Below are positions 7,160 to 41,591 of a stretch of DNA of 64,000 nucleotides, piece by piece. This stretch comes from Flavobacteriales bacterium. Lineage in GTDB: Bacteria; Bacteroidota; Bacteroidia; Flavobacteriales; JANQLC01. Position numbers and translations under genes: made by a program. The notes beneath the pieces are model-generated. The model was not told where the DNA came from and made no database searches. It saw only the letters and a list, made by a program, of their open reading frames with translations. Location: positions 81,574 to 145,573 of the forward strand of contig JANQLC010000007.1 in NCBI GenBank assembly GCA_028280815.1, given 5' to 3'. Every line of letters starts with the position of its first letter. Position 1 is the first letter of the stretch.

Positions 7160-8803
<1,644 letters not shown>

Positions 8804-8987
8804 ATCTGGGCGATTGTGAGATCATTTTTAGACCGAGTGAATGTCCTTGGCGCGATCTGTCTATGGGGTTTGATAAAAACGCAAAACGGACCTTGGGCTG
8901 TGGTGATTTGGAACGGATTTGCGTACGGATTTTTTGAATCGCATTTTAAATCGTATACTATATTTTTAAAGGATTGAGGAAAACGCG

Positions 8988-10817: not shown

Positions 10818-10899
10818 GCGGATGATCCAATTCGACACCGTATCGAATTTCTGAGACGGTGGTCCGTGGCCTTTTTGCCCGACTGCTCTATCTCACCGA

Positions 10900-10995
10900 G
10901 GCTTGAGATTAAAAAACTCTTTTCCCCTTTGTTCTCTTCCAACCGTGGGGGTGCTGAAAAACAGTGTATGCAGAGACTGCAGCGCTGGCTTTTTG
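10900..10995 (+). repeat. two GTTTGAAAAG-type repeat units (mini-locus of the GT-rich repeat family)
   Basis: TTGAGATTAAAAAACTCTTTTCCCCTTTGTTCTCTTCC...GTGGGGG followed by TGCTGAAAAACAG... resembles the units of the 38750-40275 array in the same orientation. It lies just 5' of the tRNA-Ser(UGA) locus. Confidence 0.35.
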
Positions 10996-11084
10996 GAGAT
11001 GGGCGGCTCGTGATGAGATCGCTACAAAACCGGCTGTGTGGAAGCCTGTCTCTCTTCTCGAATGCGCTGGTCTCAGGTTTAATT

Positions 11085-11172
<88 letters not shown>

Positions 11173-11276
11173 TGCGGCTGCAAATATAGCGTTTTTAGCC
11201 CTGTCCATCACCTGTGTTGAGGCCTTGTACGCCGGCTTCGACTAAGCGTGGAATTCCACGCCGTTTTTCTGGGGTT

Positions 11277-14200
11277 TTACGCCGTTGCGCGCGCTTTTTT
11301 GCGAAACCGAATCTTTCCCCGCTGCAACAGGTAGAGCATGACCGGTACGATGACCAGCGTGAGGAATGTGGCAAAGGACAGTCCAAATATTACCGTCCAG
11401 GCCAAGGGGCCCCAGAAGACGACATTGTCCCCACCGATGTAAGTGTGTGGATTGTAATCGCTGAAGAGCGAGAAGAAGTCTATGTTTAAGCCCGTAGCCA
11501 GGGGGATCAAACCCAAGATGGCCGTAATCGCGGTGAGCAGTACTGGGCGTAAGCGCGATCGACCCCCCTCTACGATGGCTTCAAAGTAATCCCGCTTTTC
11601 CAATAGCGCTGATTCGTCGAGCCCGCGCTCTGCTTTTTTGCGGTCGATGAGCAGCTGGATATAGCCGACCAAGACGATGGCGTTGTTTACCACGACCCCC
11701 GCCAATGCGATGATTCCCATCATGGCCATGATGATGATAAAGTCCATGTGAAATATCACCAGTCCGAGGAGCACACCGATAAAGCTCATTAAGACGGCCG
11801 TCATGATGATAAGCGGTTTGGAAATCGAGTTGAATTGTGCGACCAAGATCAAGACAATGCCGCCTACGGCCATGAGTAGGGCTTTGATCAAGAAGTTTAA
11901 ATTTTTTGATTGTTCTTCCTGTTCGCCTGTAAATTTATAGCTCATGCCTTTGGGTAGGGGAAAACCCTTCAACTCACGCTTCAGCCGCGCTACGATTTCA
12001 TTGGCGTTGTAGCCTTGTAAAACGTTGGAATAAAGGGTGATGACGCGTTTTAAGTTTTTGCGCTTGATCGCGCTAAACGAAGAAGTGGACACTTTTTTAC
12101 ACACAGTTGATATGGGTACTTGCTTCAATTGGCCATCGGTGATATCCCGGTATGTCACCGGTTGGTTAAAAAGCGCATTTTCATCGTAGCGGTAGTCTTT
12201 GTCGAACCGCACGTTGATATCGTAATCGTCTTTTGGGTCTTTGTAGGTGGATATTTTTTCACCGTACAGGGATCGGCGCAGGGTTAAGCCGATGTTGCTC
12301 GTACTCAAGCCCAGCGCGCCGGCTTTTTTGCGATCTACCCGTATGCGAATGCCGGGCTTAGAACGGTTTACGTCTATTTTTAAGGCTTCGATACCGTCTA
12401 TCTTTTTATCGTTGATAAAGTCGCGAATTTTTTCCACTTCGTCGAGCATAACCGGATAGTCATCGCCTGAGATTTCCAGGTTGATCGGATAACCGATGGG
12501 GGGGCCTACCCAATCTTTTTCCACGCTCATAGAGACGCCTGGATAGCCTTGCACAGCCTTTCGGATCCTTGCTAGCAGTTCTCGGCTGCTCATCCCGCGT
12601 CGGTACTTGTATTCGCGCAACGAAAGGGTGATCTTGGCTTTGTTCGGCATTTCGGATTGATTTCCGCTATCCGTTTGCGGGTTGCCCGCGCCTTCGCCTA
12701 CTTGCGCCACCCCTGACTCCACCATATAGTTGTAGCCGTCTGGGTCTTCGTATTTTTTGATGATATCATAGATGCGCTTTTCAATCGTCTCGGTAAAAGC
12801 GTTGGTCTTTTCGATGTCTGTGCCTTCGGGAAATTCGATATACGCCATGATCTGGTTGGGCAGGGTATCTGGAAAGAAATCCACTTTGGGCTGGGCTATA
12901 CCCACTAAGAAGAAGGACAGCAAGAGCAGCAGTACGGTTCCGAAGAAAAAGTAATATGCGCGCTTGCCGCTGAGGGCAAAGCGCAAAAGTCGTTGATAAG
13001 CGTTTTCCAATCGAGCCAGGAACACATGCTGAAAGTACCGTTCCGCTCGGCTGAGGGCGTATTTGTAAATCCACATCAGCAGGGCAAAGAACAAGATCAG
13101 GTTTCCCAGACCCCTTAAGAAACCGATGTTTTGAGCCCATCCAACGAGTAAAAACGAGGCGCCTACCAGTGCTGAGATAAGGCTTATGCGCACGAGCGCT
13201 TTCTGGCGCATGGTTCTTTCTTTCAATTGCATGAGGTGACTCGTGAGCGTGGCATTGATGACCAAGGCGACGAAGAGCGATGAAAAGAGCACGATGGAGA
13301 GGCTCGTGGGGAAGTAAATCATGAACTTTCCCAAGGTACCCGGCCAAAGTCCCAGTGGAAAGAAGGCTGCCAAGGTGGTCGCCGTAGAGGCGATAACAGG
13401 CCAGGCGAGTTCACCTATGCCCTGGATGGCGGCTTCTTTGCATGACAGGCCCTTTTCATTCATCAGGCTGTGAACGTGTTCAACCACCACGATACCGTTA
13501 TCGACCAACATGCCCAATCCCATCACCAGCCCAAATAACACTATGGTGTTGAGTGTAATGCCCATGCTGTGCAAGATCAGATAGGACATCAGCATGGAGA
13601 TTGGAATGGCAATGCCGACGAAGATGGCATTGCGCAGGCTGAGGAAAAACATCAGCACGCTTACCACGAGAATCACACCCAAAATGATGTTGTTGACCAG
13701 ATCGGCTACTTGGTCTTTAGTCATTTGGGATAGGTCGTTGGTTATGCTGATGTGCAGCGTTTTGGGTAGGTATGTTCGCTGTGCGTCTGCCACGATTGTG
13801 CGAATGCCATTTGTCGCTTCAATCGTGTTTTTGCCGGAGCGCTTTTTCACGTCTAGCATCACGACGGGTTTTCCAAATGCGCGTGCATAGGAGGTGGCGT
13901 CTTTTCCCACAAATGAAATCCGGGCGATATCCCCGAGGTAAACGACTCCGCCTTGCCTTTTGACCACGATGCTTTCCAGTTGTTTTGGGTCGGATATCTC
14001 ACCGACGATTCGGATGTTTTTGCGGATGTCGTTTGCGATGAAATCCCCACCGGAAATGGTTCTGTTTTCCAGCCGGATGCTGTTGACAATGTCGTCAAAA
14101 CTCACTTTGGCAGCCGCCATCTCGTAGGGGTCTACAGCGATTTTGACCTCTTTATCCGGTGCGCCTCGTATGGCTACCTCTTTGATTTCAGGCAGGCGTT

Positions 14201-14738
14201 CGATTTCGTCTTTCAGCTGTTCGCCGTATCCCTTGAGCTGTTGAATGCTGAAATTCCCCTCCAGGTTGATGTTGAGGATGGGGATTTCTTCCGAAATGTT
14301 GAGGTCGAATACCCTGGGTTCCACCTTTCCACCGTTATCCATCACCGGCCATTCGGCTTTGGCTTTGGCCAGGTCAACCTTGTCCTTTACCTTGGCCTTG
14401 GCTTCTTCCACAGCTATGCCTTCATCGAATTCGACGATGATGATGGAGTAGTCCTGCAAGGTGGTAGAGGTGATTTTGTTTACCCCGTTGATTTGTTTGA
14501 ACTCTTTTTCAAGTGGCTCTGTGATAAACTTTTCCACATCTTCGGCTGCATTCCCAGGGTTTGCGGTACTCACGTAAATCTTCGTCTCGATGATTTCGGG
14601 AAAAGCTTCGCGCGGCATGGCGTAATAAGAGAACAGACCACCCAGCAAAATAATCGCGATAATCACGTAAACTGTCACGCGGTTGTTAATCGCCCAGGTG
14701 GAGATGGGAAACCGTTTATCTGTTTTTTTATCGCTCAT
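11277..14738 (-). CDS. efflux RND transporter permease subunit (AcrB/HAE1 type)
   Basis: About 1150 aa with the two-fold TM / large-loop architecture of RND pumps, in an operon with the adaptor and TolC-like genes. The start is set at ATG 14738 (MSDKKTDKRF...); the ORF-track M at 14777 would overlap the adaptor gene by 50 nt. Confidence 0.92.
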   Translation of the reverse strand: MSDKKTDKRFPISTWAINNRVTVYVIIAIILLGGLFSYYAMPREAFPEIIETKIYVSTANPGNAAEDVEKFITEPLEKEFKQINGVNKITSTTLQDYSIIIVEFDEGIAVEEAKAKVKDKVDLAKAKAEWPVMDNGGKVEPRVFDLNISEEIPILNINLEGNFSIQQLKGYGEQLKDEIERLPEIKEVAIRGAPDKEVKIAVDPYEMAAAKVSFDDIVNSIRLENRTISGGDFIANDIRKNIRIVGEISDPKQLESIVVKRQGGVVYLGDIARISFVGKDATSYARAFGKPVVMLDVKKRSGKNTIEATNGIRTIVADAQRTYLPKTLHISITNDLSQMTKDQVADLVNNIILGVILVVSVLMFFLSLRNAIFVGIAIPISMLMSYLILHSMGITLNTIVLFGLVMGLGMLVDNGIVVVEHVHSLMNEKGLSCKEAAIQGIGELAWPVIASTATTLAAFFPLGLWPGTLGKFMIYFPTSLSIVLFSSLFVALVINATLTSHLMQLKERTMRQKALVRISLISALVGASFLLVGWAQNIGFLRGLGNLILFFALLMWIYKYALSRAERYFQHVFLARLENAYQRLLRFALSGKRAYYFFFGTVLLLLLSFFLVGIAQPKVDFFPDTLPNQIMAYIEFPEGTDIEKTNAFTETIEKRIYDIIKKYEDPDGYNYMVESGVAQVGEGAGNPQTDSGNQSEMPNKAKITLSLREYKYRRGMSSRELLARIRKAVQGYPGVSMSVEKDWVGPPIGYPINLEISGDDYPVMLDEVEKIRDFINDKKIDGIEALKIDVNRSKPGIRIRVDRKKAGALGLSTSNIGLTLRRSLYGEKISTYKDPKDDYDINVRFDKDYRYDENALFNQPVTYRDITDGQLKQVPISTVCKKVSTSSFSAIKRKNLKRVITLYSNVLQGYNANEIVARLKRELKGFPLPKGMSYKFTGEQEEQSKNLNFLIKALLMAVGGIVLILVAQFNSISKPLIIMTAVLMSFIGVLLGLVIFHMDFIIIMAMMGIIALAGVVVNNAIVLVGYIQLLIDRKKAERGLDESALLEKRDYFEAIVEGGRSRLRPVLLTAITAILGLIPLATGLNIDFFSLFSDYNPHTYIGGDNVVFWGPLAWTVIFGLSFATFLTLVIVPVMLYLLQRGKIRFRKKARATA

Positions 14739-15906
14739 GGCCTTTTGCATTCTCAATCGATACCTCGTCTCCGTCACTTACGTCGGCCGCCCCTGCTGCT
14801 ATCAGGATTTCACCCGGTGATAGCCCACTGCGCACCTCGGTTAGGGAACCCGTGGTCAGTCCGGTGGTGATAATCCTTTGCTCGGCTCGACCCACATTTC
14901 CCTCACGCTTTGTAATGGTGTAAACTATTTCTTGCCCTTTTGCATTTTTGCGGATGACGTTTTGTGGAATCACCAGTGCTTCGGGGTTTTTGTAATCGGT
15001 GATCTCCAATTTGGCGATGAGGTTGGGTTTTACGAGACCGTCTCGGTTTGGGATGTCCACCTGAATGCTAAAAGAGCGGTTGTTGGGGTTGACGAAGTTG
15101 CTCACCTGACGGATTGTACCGTCATAGGTTTTTCCAATGCTCGGTAAATGCACGTTGACGCGATCGCCTAGGGTGATATTTTCTATGTAATTTTCAGGGA
15201 TTTCCGCTTGTACGTACATGTTTTTCAAATTTACGATACGCATGATTCTCGAACCTGGGGCCACTACTTCTCCACGATTGGACAACACTTGTTCAATCGT
15301 ACCGTTGAAAGGGGCGTGGATCTGCGTTTTTGCCAGTTGGGCTTGCAGCTGCTGAACGCTTTGTCGGGCGGTTTCCGCTTGGGTTTTGGCTTGCAAGTAT
15401 TGCATTTCGGAACCTATTTCTTGATCCCACAGCCGCTTTTGTCGCTCGAAAGTGGTCTCTGCCAACCGCGCTTGCGCCTGGGTTTGTAAAAGCCTTTGAG
15501 CCAGGCCGCCGTCGCCAATGCACGCCAAGAGTTCCCCCTTTTTTACCGTGTCGCCCTCTCTCACATACACCCGATTTAAGATGCCGCTGTATTCTGAAAA
15601 GAGGATCAAGTTCTGCTTGGTTTCTACGTTCCCCTGAATGGCTGTAAAATGCTCGAAAGCGGTATCTCTTACCCGGACGGTGGTAACCGGGATTTGGATC
15701 GACTTGGGATTCAATCGAGATAGGGCCTGATCCAATTGCTCAAGCTCGAGCTCTAGTGCGTCGTATTGTTTTAATATGGAATTCTTTTTTGCCTTGATCA
15801 AGTCGACTTTACCCGTGGCGATAACCGATTGGGTGGTCTTATCGGCTGTTTCTTTCCCACAGGAAAAAGCCAGTAGGATGGGCAGCAGGTAGCATAACTC
15901 TTTCAT
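14728..15906 (-). CDS. efflux RND transporter periplasmic adaptor subunit (HlyD/MFP family lipoprotein)
   Basis: Lipobox LLAFSCG, a coiled-coil hairpin (LQAQLAKTQ) and beta-barrel domains, between the TolC-like and RND genes. Confidence 0.9.
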   Translation of the reverse strand: MKELCYLLPILLAFSCGKETADKTTQSVIATGKVDLIKAKKNSILKQYDALELELEQLDQALSRLNPKSIQIPVTTVRVRDTAFEHFTAIQGNVETKQNLILFSEYSGILNRVYVREGDTVKKGELLACIGDGGLAQRLLQTQAQARLAETTFERQKRLWDQEIGSEMQYLQAKTQAETARQSVQQLQAQLAKTQIHAPFNGTIEQVLSNRGEVVAPGSRIMRIVNLKNMYVQAEIPENYIENITLGDRVNVHLPSIGKTYDGTIRQVSNFVNPNNRSFSIQVDIPNRDGLVKPNLIAKLEITDYKNPEALVIPQNVIRKNAKGQEIVYTITKREGNVGRAEQRIITTGLTTGSLTEVRSGLSPGEILIAAGAADVSDGDEVSIENAKGHER

Positions 15907-15910
15907 GGTC

Positions 15911-17272
15911 TCATGGTTTAATGGGTACGTCTAATGCGCTTCCTAGTTTGGCCCTCGCATTGATCACCTCCAATAGGGATTGTAAATATTTTCGCTGGGC
16001 TTGATACAATTGTCGTTGGGCGCTGTTTAGCTCTTGACTGGTACTGATGCCTTCAAAGAACTTGGTTCGTTCTTTTTTCTCTACGTGCTCGGCTAGGCTC
16101 AGATTTTGCTTCGTGGTCTGATACTGATCTAAGGCAAATCGGTAATTGCTCTTGGCGCTTTGCAGGTTTAATAATATGTGCTGTTCGGTTTGTGCCAAAT
16201 GGTTTTCGGCGATTTTCAGATCGACTTTAGCCGCTTGAATGCGGGCCTTTCTCCCCAAACTGCTAAAGATCGGTATGTGTAAATCCACGCCGAGCAGTGC
16301 CGACCCAAACCACTTCTGCCTGTTTTCGAAAAATGAGAATGAATCGGAATAAGCGTTTTGACCATAACTCAAAAAGGCGGACAGGCTCGGTAGCGATTGG
16401 CTCTTCTCGTGCTTCAGCTGTAGCGTCCGGGCTGCTTTGTCGTTTTCAGCGATGCGGTGGTCGATGTGGCGCGATATCGAGAAGGGTTCTTGTAATATGT
16501 TGTCATTCATGGATTCAGCGGCCAGTTGCTCCATTTTTTGGCTGAGGTGAACGGGCGACTCGATATCGCGCCCCAAGGTCATATTGAAGCGTTCATAAGC
16601 GATTTTTTCCTGGCGCCTGGCGCTGCGCAGCTGGTTTTCCATGCTGTGTAGATTGATCGCCAGCTGTTCGGCATTTTCAATTTCCATCAAGCCGTTTTTT
16701 ACGGCGGCATCGGCTTCGCGGAAACTCTGCTGCAAGACGCTTAGGTTCTCTTTGAGGATTTGAATCATCTCTTCGGCCAGCAGCGCATTTCCGTACGCAT
16801 TGACCACCGATTCGCGAATGCGCTGCTCGGTTTTTTCCCTTGTATTTTTTGAGATGAGCAAATAGGTTTTGGCCGATTGTAAGCCGATTAGATAGGAACT
16901 GTTGAATAAGAGTTGGGAAAGCGTTGCCGAGGCGCTCAGGTTTTGTGCTGTGGTAAAGGGCAACATCTCGTAATCCCCTTTTTTGCCACCAGGAAAAAAT
17001 TCTGCCGGTGTGGGTTGTAGGGGTTTTTTTAAAAAATTTTTATAGTCGAGCTCTGCACCGATTTGTGGCAGTCCGATACTCGTGGACTCCCATTTTTTTT
17101 TCCTTGCCTTTTGAATTTCACATGTCGCATCTCGGATGGCATAACTGTGCGCTAAGGCGTATTGTAAAGCCGCTTTCAGGCTGAAGCTCACTGGGATGGT
17201 ATCACCGCGATGTTGTGCGAAGAGAAGACCATGGGTAATGAGACAAAAACAAATGAATAACTGTTTTTTCAT
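15911..17272 (-). CDS. TolC-family outer membrane efflux protein
   Basis: A signal peptide and two OEP-type repeats. It is the first gene of the efflux operon. Confidence 0.88.
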   Translation of the reverse strand: MKKQLFICFCLITHGLLFAQHRGDTIPVSFSLKAALQYALAHSYAIRDATCEIQKARKKKWESTSIGLPQIGAELDYKNFLKKPLQPTPAEFFPGGKKGDYEMLPFTTAQNLSASATLSQLLFNSSYLIGLQSAKTYLLISKNTREKTEQRIRESVVNAYGNALLAEEMIQILKENLSVLQQSFREADAAVKNGLMEIENAEQLAINLHSMENQLRSARRQEKIAYERFNMTLGRDIESPVHLSQKMEQLAAESMNDNILQEPFSISRHIDHRIAENDKAARTLQLKHEKSQSLPSLSAFLSYGQNAYSDSFSFFENRQKWFGSALLGVDLHIPIFSSLGRKARIQAAKVDLKIAENHLAQTEQHILLNLQSAKSNYRFALDQYQTTKQNLSLAEHVEKKERTKFFEGISTSQELNSAQRQLYQAQRKYLQSLLEVINARAKLGSALDVPIKP

Positions 17273-17843
17273 CTATGGTGATTTGATTTTTAAAGCGCGG
17301 GTTTGGTATTTGCCTTTGACCGTGGTGAATGCTGTGCAGCTGGTGTGCCAAGGGTCCGCTCACCCGTCCCCAGTAAATTTTGCGATACATGCGGCAGGTG
17401 GTAGACCGCCTTTGTAGCGATGCGGTAGGTGAATGAGGTGGTGCTCAAAATTTTTTCTTCCATGGGCTTTGCTCAGGTGCAAATGTATGTATAACTCATA
17501 TATCAAGCGTACGGGGAAAAGAAGGCCTTTGGTTTTTGCACTGTTAGTAATCACGATGTTCGCATGGTTTGCCCGATAAATACATCCGGGTTTATCGCGT
17601 AACGAATTTTACGACTCTCTGCTATCCTCGCATAGGGGTTTTCGCCAAAGCGCTTGTTTCACCGTTCTTATTCCATTACTCGGCTTCTTCAGCGATATAC
17701 CTCGCCATCATACCTTTTCGGTTCTTCTTAACGGATTTTTTAAATTTTGGACGTCTTACCTTTCCAAAATCAGGCGATTCCTCTTTCAACCCTTACGTTA
17801 AAAAAACATTAACTACATCTGCCAGACCCTTAAAATCGAAAAT

Positions 17844-17978
17844 ATGAGAAAGACGTTGTTTTTTCTGATCGCAGTCGTTCTCAGCCTTACCACCGGTTGC
17901 AATGAAGATCGAGGAATCGTATCTCAATCGGATACCGGGATAAAACCGGCCGGCTCAATCCCGGAAGCGATAAAATAG
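17844..17978 (+). CDS. small putative lipoprotein (44 aa), possibly the 5' remnant of a disrupted longer gene
   Basis: MRKTLFFLIAVVLSLTTGC has a signal peptide plus lipobox. The TAG at 17976-17978 is in frame with ORF 17982-18185. Too short for the ORF track. Confidence 0.3.
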   Translation: MRKTLFFLIAVVLSLTTGCNEDRGIVSQSDTGIKPAGSIPEAIK

Positions 17979-18334
17979 CCGATGCCATCACCTATCATCA
18001 ATACCATTTTTAGGGGCGATAGCCCAAATACCGAAGAGGCCGGGCAGTCAAGCGGTCTGGAAGGGAGGAAAATCTCCAAAGGGGATAGAGCCGATATCAT
18101 CGATATAAAGGATCGTAAAAAAGAGCACATCTTAAAATGGGTCTGCTTTAAACCCCGTGGTTACGCCTTGATCAGCGCGCTTTGAAAGGCATCCCGAATC
18201 CGGCGGTCTCGTTCTATTCGGAAGGAAAGTTCGATCGAAACCATCCCAACTCCGGGATGGAATATTTTTTATTGTTCAACCCTTCATTGTTTTTTACAAT
18301 ACATTTTAAGTCTGATGCGTATTCGTTTCTCGTT

Positions 18335-20850
18335 TGGTCGCTTGAAAAGGAGAACTCGTTTTGGCGCTCGCCTGTAGGTCAGTAAAAAGCATTTTTTATC
18401 GTCTGACGGTTTAAAGAAGCGGACTTGTCCTTTTGTTTCTGCACTGTGTTTCAGTTGCAAAATGCCGACTGCGGCCTATAATTTGCACGGGCCTGAATCG
18501 CCGGCTCTTATTTTTTTGCTCTTATCCCTGTGGTCAGCTGCGCTGGCCCCGCTACGCAGGTTTGGTAAGAGATGGGCATCTAAGGGGTCAACCCCTTGAT
18601 TCTTTATTGTATGTTCTTCTCAATTGGGTAGGGCCTGAAAGGCTGGTGTTGTTTTCTCGTCTTTGTCCTTTTGTGCGCGTTTGGAGGCTTGGGTCTTGTT
18701 TTCTCGCTGCTGTTTGGCCTTTATAAAACGGCTTGTTTTGCGTTGGGGAGTTCCCGCGTTTTTTGCTTTGTTTCGCCGGTGTTTTGACGAACTGTTTTGT
18801 CGGTTGCCTTGCCGGGTTATTGGGTTGTTGTGTTGCGGTGGGCTGACTGGTTTGAGCTGGCTTGGATTGAGCAGCTGGGTTTGGTTTAGATTGGTTTACA
18901 CAAGGTGTTTAAAAGGCGTTTTTGACAGGGGAAATGAAGGCGGCTCGGTGGTGGCTATGGGTGGGTTGATTTGTTCAGTGGGCAGTGTATGGGTCTATCG
19001 GTTGAATTGGGTGGCTTGGATTGGGTTGTTGGGTTTTGTTGTCGATTGTGTTTGTGGGGCTGGCGAATTGTTAGCTCGGTTGGTTGCCTGACTTTGGTTT
19101 GATTGCTCAGGTGCTGGTTTGTCTTCTTGGTTTTTCTTTTGTGTTGGCTTGATTTCCACCCTTTGGTTTTGTTCTCTTGGGCTTGTTTAAGGGTTTGGGG
19201 CTGTTCTTCCGTTTCTGTTTGTCAGTTTAAAAGGGTTTTTGTCCTCAACCTCTTGAAAAGGGAGGCTTGCCTTTTTGGCTTTGTCGTTTGGGGCGTTTGG
19301 TTGGTTGAATTGGGGTGCGGTGTCGTTGTATTGGCTCGGTTGGGTTGGCACAAAGTGTTTGAAAGGTGTTTTTGCCATTGGGAAAAGGCGGGCCCGTCGG
19401 CGGCTTCGGGTCGGGACTTTTTTATGCTAAGCGGTTTTGAGTCAGCGGCGCTTTCGTATTGATAAAGGTTTGCATTTCACTGGCTTGCTGGGTTTGGGTT
19501 GGTTGAGTTGGGTTAGTCGAATTGCTCTATTGGTTTAGTGGGTTGGTCGGGTGGTGGTTGGTTGACTGGCTTGACTTGGTTGGCTTGGGTTGAGTGGGTT
19601 TGTCGGGTTGGATTGTTTGAGTTGATTGACTCGTTGGGCGTAGTGGGTGCGGTTCGATTGGATTACGTCGGTGCGGTTGGCTTGGATGGGTTACAGTGGA
19701 CTGCGCTCGGTTGGTTTGTTGTGGTTCGTTTGGGTTTGTTTCGGCGTGTTGCGTCGATGTGTTCGTTGGGGTTGGGTGATGGTCTTGTGATGCGGCGGTT
19801 GGATTGGGTTGTGATGCAGGGCGTTGCGTTTGTTTCGTTTGTTTTTTTACCATCCTTGAAAGAAATAAACTACTGCTGTTTTGTATGCTTGTGCTGAGTT
19901 GCTTAGCCCCTACTGGGTTGTTGCGTTGCGGTGGATTGGCTGGCTTGGATTGTCGTAGTGGGTCGGTTTGGGCTAGCCGGCTTGGATGCGCTGATCGATT
20001 GCTTCAGTAGCTTGGTATGGCTGGTTTGTCAGTGTGATTCATCGGGTTGGACTGGGTTGATTTGGATTGGCTCGGTGGATTGGTTTAGTGGATTGGGTTG
20101 CTTCGCACGGGTTGGATGGGTTGTGGTGGTGTCTTTGTGTTGATCGATTGTATTCTTCCTCTTCGATTCCTTTGGTATGGGTTTTTTCTGTGGTCGATAT
20201 AGGTGGATTTTAGACTTCTCGTTTTTTGTCCCTTCTCCTGCAGTTGGTTTTTTTGCGTTTGGCTTTCCGCTGATTGGCTTGGGTGGTTTTGGGCTGGATG
20301 GGCTTGTTTGATGCGTTGTTGCGTTGCTGCATGGCGGTGAGTCGTCGCATTGATTGTGTCGGATTGTTTGATAGGCTTTGAAAGAAGTATGACCCTTGCT
20401 GTTTCGGGTGCTTGGTCTCTCTTGGTTTTGTCGGGTGGGCTGGATTGGCTCGTCGGGCGTAGGGGGGTCGTTTGGATTGGGTTAGGTGTGTGCGATTGGG
20501 TTGGATGGTTTGCGGTTGGTCGGCTCGTTTTCTCGGTTTGGCTCTTTTGTGGTGGCTTGAAGCAGGCGGTTTGTTTTCTCCCTTTTGTGCGCGTTTGAAA
20601 ATTCGCAGCCCTTTCCCCTTTGGCCATTTAAAGAGCGGGGATTATTTTTTGCAAAGGCGTATTGTCTTTCTGGTTTTTCCCTTTTGCGGGCCAAAGCGGG
20701 TGTTCTCGTCTTTGATCGCTGGATTGGGCTTTTCGTCTGAGATGTGTTCTCAGTGCGCTTGGGGTCGAAGGCCTGTCGCCCAATCGGTCTGTTGGAGCTT
20801 TTCGGCTGTCTTTGAAAACATCGGTGTAGCGGTCGAAGTGAGGCTCCAAT
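18335..20850 (+). repeat. G+T-rich non-coding composite repeat block, locus 2 (largest)
   Basis: 2.5 kb without a credible gene. The two lines I counted (19561-19620 and 19741-19800) are 83% and 82% G+T. Contains GGNTTGG simple repeats, GTTTGAAAAG-type units and the conserved box GTGTTT(G/A)AAAGG(C/T)GTTTTTG at 18903 and 19354. Confidence 0.75.
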
Positions 20851-20852
20851 GG

Positions 20853-23164: not shown

Positions 23165-23232
23165 GCGCTGCAAAATTCTGAAACGAACCTAAGGGAACCC
23201 CGTTGGCTATCTGATTGAAAGGAGGTCGGGGA

Positions 23233-23651
23233 TCAGCTCTCGGAAAGGGTGGTGGTGTGATCCCGTAACTCCTCACCGAGATGGGTTGTGTTTAAAGTGG
23301 GCAAATTAACAGGCGGAAAGCCCGATAGGTTGGTCAATGTGGAAATATAGGCTCTGATATAGGGAAACAGCAGGGCAGGAGCGTTCACATAAAAAAATGT
23401 ATCCAATTCGTCAAGCGCCGTTTTCTTTTTGAAGCTATAATCAGCTGTTGCGTCAATCTCAATGTGAAATGATCCGTTCTCAGCTTCAATCTCTACGCCT
23501 AAGGACAATTGAAACCTACCCTTTTCTTATCTATTACACCTTTGGGAGAAAAGGCTATGGACAGCTCTTTAGGCAGCTCACCTCTCTTAGGGCACTCGAT
23601 TAATGAACGGGTGATGGTATAGCCTTTAAATTGAGATTTTGAATGTTCCAT
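23233..23651 (-). pseudogene. SecB-like chaperone, interrupted by a single-base frameshift
   Basis: The C-terminal ORF carries the SecB signature NAPALLFPYIRAYISTLTNLSGFPPVNLPTLN. The N-terminal part starts at ATG 23651 (MEHSKSQFKGYTITRS...) and runs into a TAG, while the downstream frame opens in the overlap around 23505-23530. The total of 419 nt is one base short of 140 codons. Confidence 0.7.
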
Positions 23652-23656
23652 ATTGC

Positions 23657-24046
23657 TCAAGCGGCCAGTGCATGGACTTCATCGTGCCGTGGGGTCATGG
23701 CTTTAGCATAAGCACTCAGAAATTTGAATTCGGGAATGGGCTTATCAAGGTGAATTTTCTCCCTATACCCCAACTCGTACCCCAACTTGAGGTCGGCATG
23801 TTCTATCTCGGTTAAGGAGTCCTCCGAAATAAATAGGATATCTTCCTGTAGAAACAAGGATTCAAATTCGTCCCATATTTTTTTCTCTTCCAGTATATAA
23901 TCTTCATCGTTTTCAAAAAAACTCAAAGCAATCACTTCGATTGTATGTCTACCAGTACAGAACCGATATTCATATCGAATTCGGATTTGTGGAAACTTTG
24001 CATGTAGCGCCTTCAATTCTTTCGTTACAAATTCGCTCGCTGTCAC
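23657..24046 (-). CDS. hypothetical acidic protein (129 aa), middle gene of the HEPN/SecB-like operon
   Basis: GTG start with a 4-bp GTGA overlap on the upstream stop; its own stop lies 5 nt before the SecB-like ATG. I recognise no domain. Confidence 0.6.
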   Translation of the reverse strand: MTASEFVTKELKALHAKFPQIRIRYEYRFCTGRHTIEVIALSFFENDEDYILEEKKIWDEFESLFLQEDILFISEDSLTEIEHADLKLGYELGYREKIHLDKPIPEFKFLSAYAKAMTPRHDEVHALAA

Positions 24047-24336
24047 AACTCGAATGTTTGGGTTAGATACCTTTTAATCTCTCTCGCTTTGCGCAAAGCG
24101 GTCTCGCCCTTTTCTATATTGATTTCTATATCGCGGTAGTCCGATTCTATCCTATGTTTTTTTAAATCATCAACCTTTCTACGAAAAAGCTCACTTTCTT
24201 TAGGGCCGAATAATTTTTCTAATTGGCGGACAATGTGATCCCTGACATATAGATGAGTTCCTCCCTTAACAGATTTGCTTTCCGTGTCTTGTTTTTTATA
24301 GCTTATACATAAGACGCTTTTTAGGGTATATTTCAT
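24043..24336 (-). CDS. HEPN-like domain protein (97 aa)
   Basis: KKHRIESDYRDIEI followed by the helix GETALRKAREIKRYL resembles the R..(A/S)DY region and last helix of PF05168-type HEPN domains (from memory, not searched). Confidence 0.5.
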   Translation of the reverse strand: MKYTLKSVLCISYKKQDTESKSVKGGTHLYVRDHIVRQLEKLFGPKESELFRRKVDDLKKHRIESDYRDIEINIEKGETALRKAREIKRYLTQTFEL

Positions 24337-24506
24337 CAGTTGAAAACAGCTGTAATAAGAACAGTGCGCAGCAGGGGCATACAGGGATGCGCTAATCAGT
24401 CAGTTCGGCAGCTTCTTCATTCAGCTTGGATTTTTCTCTAAGCCTGCTCATGGATACCGGGGCAAGGGTACGTTTTTTTGAATATGCGTCGGTTTCGCCG
24501 GTGTCC

Positions 24507-25973: not shown

Positions 25974-26555
25974 CTATGAGGAAACGTGCTCCCAATTTTC
26001 GCCCTTTTTGATGCGGTAGAGTTGCATTTCCGAGATGCCGAATTGTTTGGCGATCATTTTTAAGCGGGTCTTTCGGTTGGGATCGAAGATCCTTCTCTTC
26101 AAGTACTTCACCCGGGTCTCGGTCAGCTTTTTCCCCGCATAGGGCTTGCGGTTTTTATTTTTGGCCTTTCCCAGTATGACATTGGGATTGCGCTCGTGGT
26201 GTTGAACCAATTCGTCTTTGGACACCCATTTCAAATTGGACCAGTGGTTGTTCAACTTGTTGTAATCGATATGGACTATAAATTTTTGCTCTGCTTTCGG
26301 CTTGGGTAAGAAATACTCGGCCACGAGCTGGTGCAGGTACCTGCTCTGATGCAAGAGCTTATCCCGTTTGCTTTTTAACCATACCCGATATTTGAAGACG
26401 GGGTATCCCTCGGCCAAACAGCCTTTTAAGAGCCTACCCTTTTCCAAGTTGGTCTTAAAGCTCATCAAGCGCCCAAAGTCGGAGATGGCATACCGGAATT
26501 TTAAACGGCATTCTAAGGCTACTTCTCTCCATTCTTCTCCAGGGAAGAATCGCAT
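25974..26555 (-). CDS. NUMOD4-motif HNH endonuclease with C-terminal helix-turn-helix
   Basis: GEEWREV...YAISDFGRLMS (NUMOD4), HIDYNKLNNHWSNLKW (HNH_3-type), and a C-terminal MIAKQFGISEMQLYRIKKG. The start is set at ATG 26555. Confidence 0.8.
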   Translation of the reverse strand: MRFFPGEEWREVALECRLKFRYAISDFGRLMSFKTNLEKGRLLKGCLAEGYPVFKYRVWLKSKRDKLLHQSRYLHQLVAEYFLPKPKAEQKFIVHIDYNKLNNHWSNLKWVSKDELVQHHERNPNVILGKAKNKNRKPYAGKKLTETRVKYLKRRIFDPNRKTRLKMIAKQFGISEMQLYRIKKGENWEHVSS

Positions 26556-26861
26556 TATATGTTTTTTGCAAAGGTAAAAATATCGGGCGATAGATTCACT
26601 TCGTTTAACTTGGATGGAAACCTTTGCACCTGGGCTGAAAATGACGGGATGCATTGAAATTTAGACGAGCGATAACTTCTGCGGGATTCAAAGCTGGGAA
26701 AAATGCGTGGATTTGTCAAGAAAATTTGGCTCTACGTGAAAGCTCAGAAAGGGATTTTTGCCAATCGAACAGCGAGTCCAGGATTCAATGGGCTTGGGTT
26801 TCACAGCGCTTAAAGGAATATCCAATATGGACAGCACGAGTATGAGGAGTGCTCAACCCGC

Positions 26862-34709: not shown

Positions 34710-34837
34710 GGTCCCTCACACCGGACCACCTTTGGAATCGGATAAAAATAACCGAGCCTAGCTTGAATCGACGGGGCTATCGGCTTTGTTTTGAAACTTA
34801 CGGGGCTTTGGCGATCAGCAGGGGAGACTCCATTGCG

Positions 34838-35645
34838 GGCGGGTTTCTAAATGGTGTTGCTCCTGTCGATTTTTTGCATTTGCTTTTCTACGGTTGGTGA
34901 TGGTTAGATTTTGAGCTGGGTTGTTTTTTGTCCTTGTGTTCTCCGTCGGGTTTTTGCACTTCTCATCTCTTTGCTTCTTGTACGGGTCGGTTTTTTGCAT
35001 TTTTTCTACCATTTGGTGTGGATGGACTTTGGATTGCATGGGTTGGGTTACTCAATTTGTTCAGTGTGCTGTTGCCTGATTGGCGTGTGAGCCTGTCGGC
35101 TGGTTGGGTTGTTTGATTGGGTGTCTCTTATCGGTTTTTTGCATTTGTTTTTCTCGGGCGGGTTTTGGATCCTGTGGGTTGGATGGGTCTGTTCTTCATC
35201 GAGTTCCTCGCGTGGGTTTTATGCTTGGCGTAGGTGGGTTTTGAGCTGTGTTGCATTTGCAATGGCTGGACGGGATCGGATCTTTTACACGGGTCTTTTC
35301 TGCGATGGGTGTGGGTGGGTTTTGGACTTCTCGCCTTTTCCCCTTTTTCCTGTTCGGATTTTTTGCATGGGCTTTTTCTGTGGCTGGTTTATGCAGTTTT
35401 GCCGGTTGGTGTACGTCATTTCGCTCTCGTTTGTGCGCGAGTGCATTTGTCGGGTTTTTGCATCGGCATTTTTCGGTTGATGTAGTTGAGTCGGCTGGAT
35501 TTCCACCCAGTGTTTGAAAGGCGTTTTTGCCCTTGGGATTAAGGCGGCTTGTCAAGGGTTGCCAGTCGGCGCTTTTTTACCTGAGCCGTTTTGGGTCGAC
35601 GGCGTTTTTGTATGGATCAGGGCTTGCGTTTCGCTTGAGCCTGGT
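34838..35645 (+). repeat. G+T-rich non-coding repeat array, locus 3
   Basis: TTTTGCA(T/C)TT-type motifs at 34870, 34951, 34991, 35135, 35358, 35451 and 35466. Segment 34987-35134 matches 1383-1529, and 35509-35645 matches 19354-19492. Confidence 0.7.
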
Positions 35646-35685
35646 GAATGGATATAGTCGTTAGTCGGCTTTAACCCTATGGCAG

Positions 35686-38188: not shown

Positions 38189-38635
38189 ATGGAAGTGATA
38201 CTGGTGCGAGATATCGAACACCTGGGCCTCAAAGACGAGATCGTCACCGTGCGGGATGGGTACGCCCGAAATTACTTGATTCCAAAACAGCTCGCCATTT
38301 GCGCTTCCCAATCCAATCGAAAGCAACACGACGAGGCACTGAGACAGCGCGCACACCGCGAGCGGGAAGGGGTAAACCAGGCCCGTGAAACAGCGGCTGC
38401 GCTAGCGGATTTGACACTTAAAATCCCAGCCAAGGTGGGTGCTGAAAACAAGCTATTCGGCTCTGTAACCCGTGCAGACTTGGCTGAGGCCTTGCGTCAA
38501 TCGGGATTCGATATCGACAAAAAACGCATCGAGATAAATGGCGGTGTCGTCAAAGCCATAGGAACTCATACGGCATCCATACGCTTGCACCGCTCGCTTA
38601 CGACAGACCTTTGCTTTGAAGTCGTAGCCGGTTAA
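38189..38635 (+). CDS. rplI: 50S ribosomal protein L9
   Basis: MEVILVRDIEHLGLKDEIVTVRDGYARNYLIP start, 148 aa. Confidence 0.95.
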   Translation: MEVILVRDIEHLGLKDEIVTVRDGYARNYLIPKQLAICASQSNRKQHDEALRQRAHREREGVNQARETAAALADLTLKIPAKVGAENKLFGSVTRADLAEALRQSGFDIDKKRIEINGGVVKAIGTHTASIRLHRSLTTDLCFEVVAG

Positions 38636-38749
38636 GCCAACGCGATACAGCACCATAGCCGTGGTGCCCAATTTGCAGAATCCTGCTGTATTTGCGTTTG
38701 AGCGCTGTTGACTCTCATTATAGCTCGAATCCCGACAAACCTGTAAATT

Positions 38750-40275
38750 CAGCCTCAGTTTTTGCATTTATGCGGTGTCTCGTTTGTAAAATCCCAGTGT
38801 CGCATAAATCATATGTTTGGGCTTCAAAGGGGATAAGCTCGTTTTTTTGTTTTATCCCCATAGGGTTGATTTAAAAGTCGGTCTTCCCATTTTGTTTTAG
38901 CCTTGTGAGATCGGCCTGAAAACCCAAGCCTATCTCTCCCCTATGGGTCTATCTGAAAAGCGCCTCTTATTTTTGGCGCTTGTGCATTCCGGTTGTAAAA
39001 TCGCAATCACCTCGTCGGTCAAACCGGATCAACCTCAAGGGTTTTTACCATATAGTTAAACTAAGGGACTGAAGAATAGATTTGTCTTTATCTTGTGAGA
39101 GTGGTTTGAAAGGGGTCTATTTTTTGATCCCATCCCTGTTGTGGGGCCGTTTGAAAGGGAGGCTTATTCTTTGATTTTTGCCTATCTCTGTGGGTCGGTT
39201 TAGAAGGCGAATTGTTTTTCCCTTTCCGTTTGGTAGCTTAAAAATGAGGCTCGTCTTTTGTTTTGCCTTTGTCCTCTCTGGTGCAGGTCCCGATGTTGGC
39301 CTAAATCGAAAGTGTCTAAACAAGGGTTTATTTTTTGTGCTTGTCCCTGTGTGGGATTTGAAGGGGGCTTATTTCTTTGTTGTCGTCCTTGGGATTCGGT
39401 TTAAAAAGTCGGTGCTATCTCTCGCCCTGTGAGGTGGAGCTGAAAAGTGGGCATGCTTTTCTACTTTTGTGTTGATCTGAAGAATCCGCCTTGTCTTTGG
39501 TTTCCGTAGAGCCAGTGCGGCTGGGTTTTGTTGTATTTTCAACTTGGGGGCATTCTGAAAAGCAGGGTTTACGCTTTCACTTTGTCCTTTTGTGGTAACT
39601 CGGTGGGGCAGGGATTTATTTTTTGTTTTTGTCCTGTGCGGCAGTTTAAAAAGGGGGACTCTTGTGCCTACCTCTGTTGTGCCCCGGCTGCAAAATCCCA
39701 ATCGCGTCATCGTGGTCAAATCGGTACAGTACTGCCTTGGGAAACGGCTGAGAAGGGGCTTATCTCTTTTTGTGTTTATCTGTGCAGCAGTTGGAAAGTC
39801 AGATTTGCTCTTTGGTTTTATCTCCGTATGGATATAGCAATGCGAAAATCCAGCTCTGTCTCTTTCTTCTGTGTGACGGTTTGAAAAGCGGCCTTATTCT
39901 TTTGTTTATATGCTTCCAGCTGCAAAAGTCCAATTGCATCGTCGATCAAATCGGAAGGGACTTGTTTTTTGTCCCCGAGGAGCCTGGAAAGCGGGTCTTG
40001 TCTTTATCCGGCGTATCGGTTTTGAAAATGGGGTGGTTTTTTTGCCTTTGTTCTGGTTTGGCAGTTTAAAAAGAGCGCTTTTTTGTCTGATCGGCAATCG
40101 ATTTGGGTTGGCTCCACTGGTTTTATCAGGTGTTTATCCCGGCGTGCTTTGGTCTGAAAAAGCGGCTTTATCCGCTGTGAGGAGTCTGAGTCTCCAACTC
40201 TATTTTTGCCCTTTTGCGCGGGTTTGAAAGAGATCGTCCTATTTCTTTGCGTTTGCCTCTACGCGCTTTGGGTGT
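38750..40275 (+). repeat. tandem array of roughly two dozen degenerate 36-60 bp units (GTTTGAAAAG...CTTATTCTTTTGTTT...CTGTG), locus 4 of the GT-rich family
   Basis: Unit starts read at 39103, 39149, 39198, 39237 and so on (periods 46, 49, 39). A sub-repeat CTGCAAAA(T/G)(C)CCAAT.GC.TC.TCG..(G/A)TCAAA(T/C)CGG occurs at 38992, 39687 and 39918. A TTTTTGCATTT motif lies at 38758. Confidence 0.75.
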
Positions 40276-40388
40276 GGTAGCCGCCTAGTGAAAACCCTTT
40301 GTAAGCCTGGCACGGCGAGAGGAGAGAAACGCGCAAAAGTTGAGGCATCGGGATAGAACCGATTGGTGTATGAAGCGTCCCAACGCAT

Positions 40389-41591
40389 TTATGCTTTTGC
40401 CGTCAGTGCTTTTCCCACCTTGTCTGAGGCCGCTTGCAAACTCACCGCTGCATGCACGGATAGACCGCTTTTGTCGATCATCTCTTCAGCCAGCTCAGCA
40501 TGGGTTCCTTGCAGGCGCACGATGATCGGCACGGGGATGGTATCCCCCATATTTTTACAGGCATCGATGATGCCCTGCGCCACCCGATCGCAGCGCACGA
40601 TCCCCCCAAATATGTTGATCAGGATGGCTTTCACGTTTGAGTCTGCCAAGATGATTCGAAAGCCTTTTTCCACGCGCTTCGCGTCGGCTGTGCCCCCTAT
40701 GTCCAAAAAATTGGCTGGGTTTCCACCCGAGAGCTTGATGATGTCCATGGTAGCCATCGCCAAGCCCGCACCGTTGACCATGCAGCCCACATTTCCATCG
40801 AGTTTGATGAAGTTGAGTCCCGCCCGCCCTGCCTCCACTTCGGTCGGGTCTTCTTCTCGCGTATCGCGTAGATTCGCATAGTCTTTGTGACGAAACAGGG
40901 CGCTGTTGTCCAAGGTGACCTTCGCATCCACAGCTGTGATTTTGTCGTCCGAAGTCTTTAAGACCGGATTGATTTCAAAGAGTGAAGCATCGGATTTTTC
41001 ATAGGCTTGGCAAAGAGCTGTCACGAACCCGACCAGCTCCTTAAAAGCCTGACCGCGCAACCCCAAGGTAAAGGCGATTTGACGCGCCTGAAAGGGCAAA
41101 ATACCCATTCCGGGCGCTAAGGTTTGGCTGTATATTTTGTTCGGTGTGTGCGTGGCTACGGTTTCGATGTCCACGCCGCCTTCAGGCGAATACACGACCA
41201 TGGGCTTGCCCTCGGCGCGGTTGAGCAAGACGGATATATAGTACTCTTGGATGTCCGATTCGCCGGGGTAATACACATCCTCGGCCACCAGTACTTGGTT
41301 CACCCGCTTTCCTTCCTTTGTAGTCTGGGGTGTGATCAGTCGCATACCCAAGATTTGTCCGGCCAGGGTTTTTACCTCACCCAGCGATTTGGCGAGCTTG
41401 ACACCGCCGCCCTTGCCGCGGCCGCCCGCGTGTACCTGTGCCTTGATCACCCACCACCGCGTACCGGTTTCCACAGAAAGCCTCTGGGCTGCTGCTACAG
41501 CCTTTTCGGCTGTGTCTGCTACGATGCCCCGTTGTACGCGTACCCCGAATGCGCTTAAAATGTCTTTTCCTTGGTATTCGTGTAGATTCAT
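40389..41591 (-). CDS. sucC: ADP-forming succinate-CoA ligase subunit beta
   Basis: MNLHEYQGKDIL start, ATP-grasp motifs and the C-terminal ligase-CoA domain (INIFGGIVRCD). The start is moved to ATG 41591. Confidence 0.96.
   Translation of the reverse strand: MNLHEYQGKDILSAFGVRVQRGIVADTAEKAVAAAQRLSVETGTRWWVIKAQVHAGGRGKGGGVKLAKSLGEVKTLAGQILGMRLITPQTTKEGKRVNQVLVAEDVYYPGESDIQEYYISVLLNRAEGKPMVVYSPEGGVDIETVATHTPNKIYSQTLAPGMGILPFQARQIAFTLGLRGQAFKELVGFVTALCQAYEKSDASLFEINPVLKTSDDKITAVDAKVTLDNSALFRHKDYANLRDTREEDPTEVEAGRAGLNFIKLDGNVGCMVNGAGLAMATMDIIKLSGGNPANFLDIGGTADAKRVEKGFRIILADSNVKAILINIFGGIVRCDRVAQGIIDACKNMGDTIPVPIIVRLQGTHAELAEEMIDKSGLSVHAAVSLQAASDKVGKALTAKA

Follow-up and report, generated by a model that had tools for sequence, protein, structure and literature searches.

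We analysed a 64-kb stretch of DNA from an uncultured marine Flavobacteriales bacterium (the window, to whose positions all coordinates refer unless a related lineage is named) and found that the spacer between the genes rplI and sucC carries an array of about 23–26 degenerate direct units, 1.45 kb long, in the place where related genomes have a strong hairpin terminator. This hairpin has been lost in the array-bearing genomes. The best-supported explanation, to which we assign a probability of roughly 45%, is that the array is an intergenic repeat of minisatellite-like kind, specific to the lineage and evolving at the DNA level, which perhaps serves for bulk termination or as a buffer zone. 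A preliminary description, made by reading the sequence alone, had reported about two dozen degenerate tandem units of about 45 bp between the two genes, and the follow-up bore this out, with a typical unit of about 43 bp.

A degenerate direct repeat between rplI and sucC

When 14-mers were compared with up to three mismatches allowed, the array contained 638 direct pairs, against 141 ± 31 (maximum 211) in dinucleotide shuffles, which corresponds to z of about 16; inverted 14-mer pairs were not in excess (110 against 104 ± 20 in shuffles). The offsets of short-range direct repeats were concentrated at 40–49 nt, and Fourier analysis gave peaks at periods of 48.7, 45.7 and 39.5–41.7 nt, the highest of which reached 9.0, the maximum over 200 shuffles being 6.1. 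An iterated nhmmer profile recognised 23 units, every one of them on the plus strand. Its matches at 39105, 39149, 39198 and 39236 practically coincide with the unit starts given as examples in the preliminary description (39103, 39149, 39198 and 39237). That description had also proposed a formal tandem-repeat analysis. Tandem Repeats Finder returned nothing on the array, even at a score of 30, because the units are only about 60–70% alike, and it was the direct-repeat count and the Fourier peaks that supplied the statistical support.

The array region was 100% identical in two Logan contigs and 99.8% identical in a TARA contig, with no indel. The array is therefore not an assembly artefact. 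The copy number was unchanged among samples of the same population, as expected because the repeats are too diverged to slip. The single-nucleotide differences between the window and the TARA contig, one in the rplI part and three in the array, were too few to be informative.

The array, as delimited by the repeat search and the iterated profile, extends from 38821 to 40262 on the plus strand, with its units in the same orientation. The spacing from unit to unit varies between 31 and 55 nt with a mode of about 40–49 nt, the spacing inside the units is also variable, and the closest pair of units in the array is 83% identical over 36 nt. The unit consensus reads ..CCTGTGG..GGTTTGAAAAG-GGGC-TTATTyTTTTGT..TTATCC..; when anchored, it is roughly ccTGTGgGg..GTTTgAAAaG-gGG..-tTTaTTtTTTtgt, with TTATC(C/T)C as an extra enriched block ahead of CTGTG. 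On the plus strand the array is 62% G+T, its G+C content is 45%, and the line 39121–39180 indeed has the 70% G+T that had been counted there. Four units of a variant which we call type B (..CTGCAAAATCCCAATCGCGTCATCG..GGTCAAATCGG) are scattered among the ordinary units. The variant emerged from the sorting of repeat families; it is represented by 38984–39040 on the plus strand (CCGGTTGTAAAATCGCAATCACCTCGTCGGTCAAACCGG), copies like it begin near 38775, 39679 and 39916, and a few units, those of type B, look reversed.

On the left the array is flanked by rplI (38189–38635, plus strand), which encodes ribosomal protein L9, is the last gene of rpsF-rpsR-rplI and is transcribed toward the array; an identical protein in L001 has the Pfam domains Ribosomal_L9_N/C. 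On the right lies sucC (40389–41591, minus strand), an ORF (open reading frame) for the succinyl-CoA synthetase beta subunit, also transcribed toward the array, so that the two genes converge on a spacer of 1.75 kb. The non-repeat part of the spacer 3' of rplI (38636–38820, plus strand) contains only weak hairpins, the motif TTTTTGCATTT at 38759–38769 and the first type B unit at 38775–38819; the part between the array and the sucC stop codon (40263–40388) has no canonical terminator. The neighbourhood as a whole comprises rpsF-rpsR-rplI, sucC, an ABC ATPase and DUF2400.

Two other known arrangements were considered and rejected. A CRISPR array, in which near-identical repeats of 23–55 nt alternate with unique spacers of like length and the period is usually at least 55 nt, is incompatible with the period of about 43 nt, with units only 60–70% alike, which the preliminary description had already judged too divergent, and with the lack of a partition into repeats and spacers; no Cas family was found among the 30 long ORFs of the window put to Pfam, which matched housekeeping families or nothing. 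The enriched word TTATCC prompted the idea of a replication origin (oriC), for which there is neither a DnaA-box cluster nor a sustained GC-skew switch. Boxes resembling TTATCCACA with one mismatch occur once in the array and 19 times in the window (11.5 expected), and the GC skew is positive over nearly the whole window, only two 4-kb bins being slightly negative.

The array stands in place of a bidirectional terminator

Only three related lineages were present in the searched collections. The L9 proteins closest to that of the window came from metagenome-assembled genomes named 'Flavobacteriales bacterium'. We treated L016, L017 and L018 together with L144 as the nearer lineage (L9, 76%; sucC, 84% at the amino acid level and 69% at third codon positions) and L019 and L022 as outgroups. 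A scan of genome contigs with L9 gave distant phyla only and no close relative.

In both outgroups the rplI/sucC spacer is short, 135 nt in L019 (L9, 66%) and 240 nt in L022 (L9, 64%). It holds no gene, and in each case one bidirectional hairpin terminator of -30 to -32 kcal/mol. These are textbook structures, AAAAAGGCCGGC...GCCGGCCTTTTT, located at 4376–4411 in L019 and at 4104–4140 in L022 (-30 kcal/mol), and they are useful as the ancestral state of the spacer. Within 200 nt of the gene ends, the strongest hairpins had energies of -14.9 (rplI) and -12.8 kcal/mol (sucC) in the window and of -17.8 (rplI) and -8.3 kcal/mol (sucC) in L144, all of them without a U tract. More distant sucC neighbourhoods (L146 and L147) contained no array.

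Because the hairpin terminator is gone, transcription of sucC and rplI should enter the array. In the sucC sense, RNA across the array has 36.7% A, 25.5% C, 19.4% G and 18.5% U. The excess of C over G, the weak folds and the lack of a hairpin terminator after sucC would suit Rho-type termination, and the array resembles Rho-dependent rut regions in following a gene without an intrinsic terminator, in the unstructured sense RNA and in that no sequence conservation is needed. On the other hand, rut regions are about 80–100 nt long and non-repetitive, whereas the array is 1.45 kb long and periodic, which is not required for Rho loading, and its C/G ratio is only 1.31.

In L144, rplI is followed by an inverted array with the A+C strand on top (10.58–10.93 kb), then by SusD and SusC, both directed toward rplI, then by a G+T-strand array (15.78–16.64 kb) and finally by sucC, which points the same way. 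The G+T-strand array adjoins the 3' end of sucC, in the same position and orientation as in the window. It has about 17 units in 0.86 kb, including one of type B, which matches the variant of the window at 16017–16034 with 94% identity over 18 nt. A hidden Markov model (HMM) built from the window units only gave 9 hits and 58 bits on L144 15756–16645 (shuffles: mean 0.9 hits, maximum 13.8 bits), and a model built from the L144 units only gave 14 hits and 100 bits on the window array (shuffle maximum 16.3 bits). The two consensuses, derived independently, agree at 24 of 30 defined columns. The words TTATCC, AAGGGG, CCTGTG/TGTGAG and TGAAAA/AAAAGG are strongly enriched in both lineages.

Searches further afield gave no other example. 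The 19-nt island motif TTTTTGCATTTGTTTTTCT had more than 120 unrelated matches in AT-rich DNA of metagenome contigs and none in a related array, blastn against plasmid and phage collections yielded a 33-nt chance match or nothing, and we found no description of such arrays in the literature.

Evolution of the array

Between the arrays of the window and L144 there were many matches at the level of units, all but one on the same strand, with no collinear unit-to-unit orthology; the units have therefore turned over since the two split. Their number at the same locus differs as well, about 26 units in 1.45 kb in the window and about 17 in 0.86 kb in L144. The comparison of copy number that had been suggested earlier thus revealed a difference between lineages and none within the population.

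L016 and L144 are close enough for their orthologous inverted arrays to be aligned. Their rpsF, rpsR and rplI genes are 92–96% identical at the nucleotide level (third positions, 84–92%), while the alignment of the arrays has 83.6% identity, 64 of its 545 columns are gapped, and L144 has extra units. Judged from these alignments, the arrays diverge at about the synonymous rate or faster, that is, near-neutrally. The information content per column was uncorrelated between lineages (rho -0.07, alignment anchor excluded).

The arrays also lie at rearrangement junctions. The window, L016 and L144 each have a different gene order beside rplI. In L016 (10001–20447), the inverted array comes after rplI, with OEP-MFP-RND-tRNA-yidC-pyrG beyond it; the same OEP-to-pyrG block is found in the window at 7187–17272, 21 kb from rplI and in the opposite orientation. 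In L144, the segment 10597–10753 is an inverted copy of 16085–16238 (87% over 157 nt), and this pair brackets SusC/SusD, which suggests an invertible or recently rearranged SusC/SusD segment and also a hazard for assembly. The short-read contigs behind L145 and L149, which belong to the L144 population, end inside arrays. Taken together, the duplication, loss and inversion of units and the near-neutral substitution amount to evolution at the DNA level, with the array in the role of a substrate for recombination.

In these respects the array resembles bacterial minisatellites, or variable-number tandem repeats (VNTRs), which likewise consist of head-to-tail direct units of tens of bp in intergenic positions, gain and lose units and differ in size between lineages. 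It is made of direct copies of a unit in the 10–100-bp range, and the number of units varies between related genomes. Compared with typical VNTRs it is far more decayed, shows no copy-number variation within the population and is strongly keto-skewed; its family, moreover, occurs at several loci, at one of which two lineages have retained it.

The recognition of units across lineages would also be expected if each of them offered a low-specificity site, such as GTTTGAAAAG and/or TTATCC..TGTG, to a protein of nucleoid-associated, partition-like or regulatory type; the array would then load many copies of this protein and be a DNA binding array similar to sopC, iterons or decoys. The sopC locus of plasmid F consists of twelve 43-bp centromere repeats, and the preliminary description had pointed to this likeness. 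The period of about 43 bp spans about four turns of the helix and agrees with the length of the sopC unit, the repeats are direct and in one orientation as in sopC and iterons, both lineages show an enrichment of the same words, the array has persisted at its locus, and a lack of RNA structure is irrelevant to a DNA site. However, the repeats of sopC and of iteron arrays are nearly identical to one another, each with a defined dyad or binding site, and lie beside partition or replication genes. The array has none of these: its units are 60–70% alike with variable internal spacing, dyad symmetry is missing in line with the absence of an inverted-repeat excess, no par, rep or regulator gene is adjacent, and no gene for partition or replication initiation was found among the Pfam-annotated ORFs of the window, the context being that of chromosomal housekeeping genes. 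In the range of a signal of helical phasing or curvature (10–11 nt) the array had a peak at 11.1 nt which did not exceed the shuffles, and the unclustered DnaA boxes, the near-neutral divergence and the uncorrelated columns likewise speak against specific sites. The period fits the iteron or centromere idea, and we regard a protein-binding array as an unlikely explanation.

Coding capacity, RNA structure and promoters

The array is non-coding. Its triplet periodicity was 1.1, compared with 4.7–15.9 for the neighbouring genes, its ORFs had no match in Pfam, and most spacings between units are not multiples of three. This agrees with the earlier statement that no gene is present in the spacer. 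ORFs of 84–118 aa do occur in several frames, and DNA with an A+C/G+T skew has few stop codons, so one could think of what is left of a gene, now decayed, that encoded a repetitive protein of low complexity; but the missing periodicity, Pfam matches and frame-keeping spacings, and the absence of a gene at this position in the outgroups, make such an origin hardly credible.

A search of Rfam gave no match to the array at the gathering threshold and, at a relaxed E-value, two chance matches to lncRNAs (E of 0.27 and 2.4). RNAalifold predicted 0 consensus pairs from 39 units, and the idea of a structured RNA family was rejected on these grounds. Folding of the individual units on both strands, as the preliminary description had recommended, revealed no excess over shuffles: the mean z was -0.35 on the plus and -0.39 on the minus strand of the array, and for 46 units from both lineages it was 0.04 on the G+T strand (p=0.78) and -0.28 on the A+C strand (p=0.08). 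The L144 arrays had no hairpin tendency (z +0.2). Units folded as the A+C strand were weak, between -0.9 and -11.6 kcal/mol.

Individual hairpins do exist. The unit at 38958–38981, with the arms AAGCGCC and GGCGCTT around a T-rich loop of 10 nt, is one of the few good ones, and further examples are at 38829–38860, 39112–39131 (with one G.T pair), 39955–39976 and 40161–40176. Three of these (38958–38981, 39112–39131 and 40161–40176) had been quoted before and are real. They are exceptions all the same, a stem of at least 5 bp being formed by only about 5–6 of 26 units, with loops of 6–16 nt. The complementarity of a unit's own arms was slightly higher than that between units (mean stem 4.6 and 4.3 bp, p=0.04), a marginal difference carried by five or six units.

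No intrinsic terminator was detected on the minus strand of the array in a consensus scan, and three weak sites on the plus strand were not above the shuffles. The Bacteroidetes promoter TTTG-N17-23-TAnnTTTG, which in full or as the -7 element alone marks the starts of a tRNA gene, bamD, dnaX, rpsF and sucC in the window, had no match inside the array, and a sigma-70 scan was at or below shuffle level.

The preliminary description had proposed that the units could be tandem terminator-like or small-RNA modules, which would make the array a stack of sucC terminators or a tandem small-RNA locus. Five or six units do form G+C stems of 5–8 bp followed by CTTTTC on the minus strand, their arms are slightly better matched than chance pairs of units, and the array replaces a real terminator. 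Most units have no stem, though, and the folding statistics of both lineages, the absence of consensus pairs and the empty minus-strand scan all argue against the modules; loops of 10–16 nt with tails of four U residues make poor terminators, and a 43-nt unit without a promoter motif is shorter than a promoter plus an RNA. Neither intrinsic terminators in tandem nor an NsiR1-type array of small-RNA genes, in which each repeat has a promoter and a terminator of its own and gives a discrete RNA, agrees with these sequence features. The proposal was not supported by these analyses; we consider it very improbable and less well supported than a protein-binding array or the sponge RNA discussed below.

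RNA without conserved structure could nevertheless act through linear motifs. The array might give a long non-coding sponge RNA with about 25 such motifs, CUUUUCAAAC, A-rich AAAACAAAAGAAUAA and GRGAUAA in the sucC sense or GUUUGAAAAG and U-rich tracts on the other strand, and titrate an RNA-binding protein or a small RNA as CsrB/RsmZ and CrcZ do. The strong strand asymmetry and the fixed orientation to sucC in two lineages are consistent with this, A-rich and GGA-containing words (GGAUAA/GAGAUA) recur on the A+C strand, and read-through RNA should exist after the loss of the hairpin terminator. Known sponges, too, have many copies of a short motif on one strand and tolerate high divergence between the motifs. 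They differ from the array in being 100–400 nt long with their own promoter and terminator and in presenting the motifs, in the case of Csr/Rsm, in hairpin loops, whereas here no promoter or terminator bounds a discrete RNA, the motifs are not in conserved loops, and there is no Rfam relative or known cognate protein. Hfq and CsrA are generally reported to be absent from Bacteroidota. The inverted partial copy in L144 means that the orientation is not strictly kept, and near-neutral divergence is a further point against a sponge. On balance we find such an RNA rather improbable.

Dispersed copies and other skewed tracts

The unit family is not confined to the rplI/sucC spacer. A second, smaller array of about 9–10 units and one of type B, with the same strand polarity, lies at 18330–18800 on the plus strand, where it makes up the left portion of a G+T-rich, ORF-poor tract of 3.5 kb whose neighbours are an OEP/TolC gene and prfB. 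The best match outside the main array was between 39871–39907 and 18401–18438 (84%), and on the adjoining G+T-rich tract at 18800–20850 the HMM of the window array gave 5 hits and 27.9 bits (shuffle maximum 10.3). A possible cluster of two units between yidC and a tRNA gene (10900–10965, plus strand) is weak, with HMM E-values of only 1.1 and 2.3. The family also occurs in L016 at 10.56–10.92 kb and 17.44–17.60 kb and at the two L144 sites. The preliminary description had named a lack of conservation elsewhere in the genome or in relatives as a reason to give the array up; the unit is conserved in both, so that this ground for refutation did not arise.

Dispersed intergenic copies are typical of the BOX, REP/BIME and MITE class, and the units could be clustered insertions of a small non-autonomous mobile element which prefers terminator spacers and its own copies and inserts in either orientation. 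The family is found at 38.8–40.3 kb, 18.3–18.8 kb and possibly 10.9 kb of the window and at 17.44–17.60 kb of L016, the type B units seem to be reversed, and the arrays lie at rearrangement junctions. A modular unit of about 45 bp also recalls the BOX element of Streptococcus pneumoniae, built as boxA-boxB(n)-boxC, in which boxB is 45 nt long and present in 0–8 tandem copies. BOX and the enterobacterial REP/BIME elements share with our family a dispersed, modular, non-coding nature, a frequent position at the 3' ends of genes, a tandem sub-unit of about 45 bp and an association with rearrangements. The array has no sequence similarity to them, no flanking modules of the A/C type and no conserved stem-loops or palindromes, and it is much longer (about 25 units) and more degenerate. 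We found no MITE-type terminal inverted repeats, target-site duplications or near-identical recent copies of the unit, even the best pair reaching only the 83% given above, and no transposase or RAYT-like gene within the 64 kb, and head-to-tail units of common polarity fit tandem duplication better. A mobile element is therefore also a rather doubtful source of the array.

About 10% of the window consists of ORF-poor tracts that are G+T-rich on the plus strand, namely 1.0–1.8 kb, 18.0–20.85 kb, 34.7–35.7 kb and the rplI/sucC spacer. The third-codon skews of the window are modest (GC about +0.05, AT about -0.11), hence a general mutation bias does not explain these tracts. Considering the orientation of nine tracts, about 7–8 fit the rule that the A+C strand is the sense strand of the upstream gene and 6–7 fit the opposite rule, a count that does not discriminate because most of them lie between convergent genes.

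The tracts differ in content. The unit HMM of the rplI/sucC array did not recognise those at 1.0–1.8 kb and 34.8–35.7 kb. The sequences 1000–1810 and 34730–35685 are ORF-poor, with 75% G+T and only 9–10% A on the plus strand, and contain a different repeat with the core GGTTTTTTGCATTTGTTTTTCT, found five times with at most two mismatches (0.03 expected); one of them is located 3' of a tRNA gene, the other fills the spacer between an M42-peptidase gene and dnaX, which is only 150 nt in L016. Between the OEP/TolC gene and prfB (17273–20852) there are 3.5 kb without a convincing gene; they hold a small lipoprotein-like ORF near 17845, and the array at 18.33–18.80 kb is followed by about 2 kb of GGnTTGG-type sequence whose minus strand, with 35% C and 15% G, is very rut-like downstream of prfB. 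Elsewhere in the window, about 1.3 kb at 23200–24500 are visibly A+T-richer than the surroundings and have no listed long ORF, and at 25974–26654 on the minus strand there is an ORF with NUMOD4 and HNH_3 domains (homing-endonuclease-like) beside a dihydrolipoyl-dehydrogenase-type gene.

Seen against these tracts, the array might be one visible element of a system of non-coding tracts, strand-polar, keto-skewed and specific to the lineage, in which about 25 motifs would be read on one strand by a Flavobacteriales factor and the repeats would be maintained for that function. The candidate factor could be an RNA-binding protein titrated by a sponge RNA from sucC read-through, or a DNA-binding or strand-specific DNA-processing activity that would also generate the G+T skew. 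We think of this as an unlikely possibility.

Discussion

The array belongs in kind with the intergenic tandem and dispersed repeats of bacteria, that is, with minisatellites and BOX/BIME elements, and it is set apart from them by the degree of its decay, its strand skew, the replacement of a terminator and the conservation of locus and orientation. In the explanation that we prefer, a minisatellite-like repeat, the ancestor shared by the two array-bearing lineages would have amplified a founder unit of about 43 bp head-to-tail in the terminator spacer that separates the 3' ends of rplI and sucC, and the copies would then have decayed to about 60–70% identity and turned over. Units would be gained and lost, and occasionally inverted, by unequal recombination or slippage. 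The composition agrees with this course: G+T is about 76% in the consensus unit and 62% in the array as it stands, whose units are about 60–65% identical to the consensus, figures that would fit an amplified, skewed founder that has decayed part of the way toward 50% G+T.

The individual units would then not be RNA genes, intrinsic terminators or precise operator sites, and the array is probably transcribed by read-through only, from sucC and from rplI. The predicted read-through RNA would be A+C-rich, with C exceeding G, and essentially unstructured when it comes from sucC, and G+U-rich when it comes from rplI. If the array is of any use to the cell, this may lie in its bulk properties, as a long zone of factor-dependent (Rho-type) termination or as a buffer against collision.

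Several observations weigh against this explanation. Two lineages whose sucC genes agree at only 69% of third positions have retained the array with its locus and orientation unchanged. As DNA without use is usually deleted by bacteria, this hints at some selective maintenance. The GC skew of +0.14 and the AT skew of -0.33 in the array are far above the third-codon values, so ordinary mutation bias is no explanation for them. The words enriched in both lineages could stem from a sequence-specific binding protein, and the composition of the sucC-sense RNA is only weakly rut-like. Homology of the unit to the outgroup terminator seemed plausible by eye, but the HMM did not support it (E>1), and this lack of support also goes against the explanation. 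It is because of the persistence at one locus, the unexplained skew and the shared words that a protein-binding array and a sponge RNA stay under consideration.

Tandem tracts that are large, old and degenerate are not usual among free-living marine bacteria, which normally clear their genomes of DNA without function. This one stands where a textbook bidirectional terminator used to separate a ribosomal-protein operon from a gene of the tricarboxylic acid cycle, and it survives in two lineages, at rearrangement junctions. There is also a practical warning in it, since inverted copies of the array break short-read assemblies, as in the case of the L145 and L149 contigs. Should the array be no more than satellite DNA, it is the record of a bacterial lineage in which about 10% of skewed non-coding sequence is tolerated, and it shows that terminator spacers can seed repeats which later drive inversions. 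The post-transcriptional machinery of Bacteroidota differs from that of model bacteria, and if the array is functional, it would point to a mechanism of termination, insulation or titration in this phylum.

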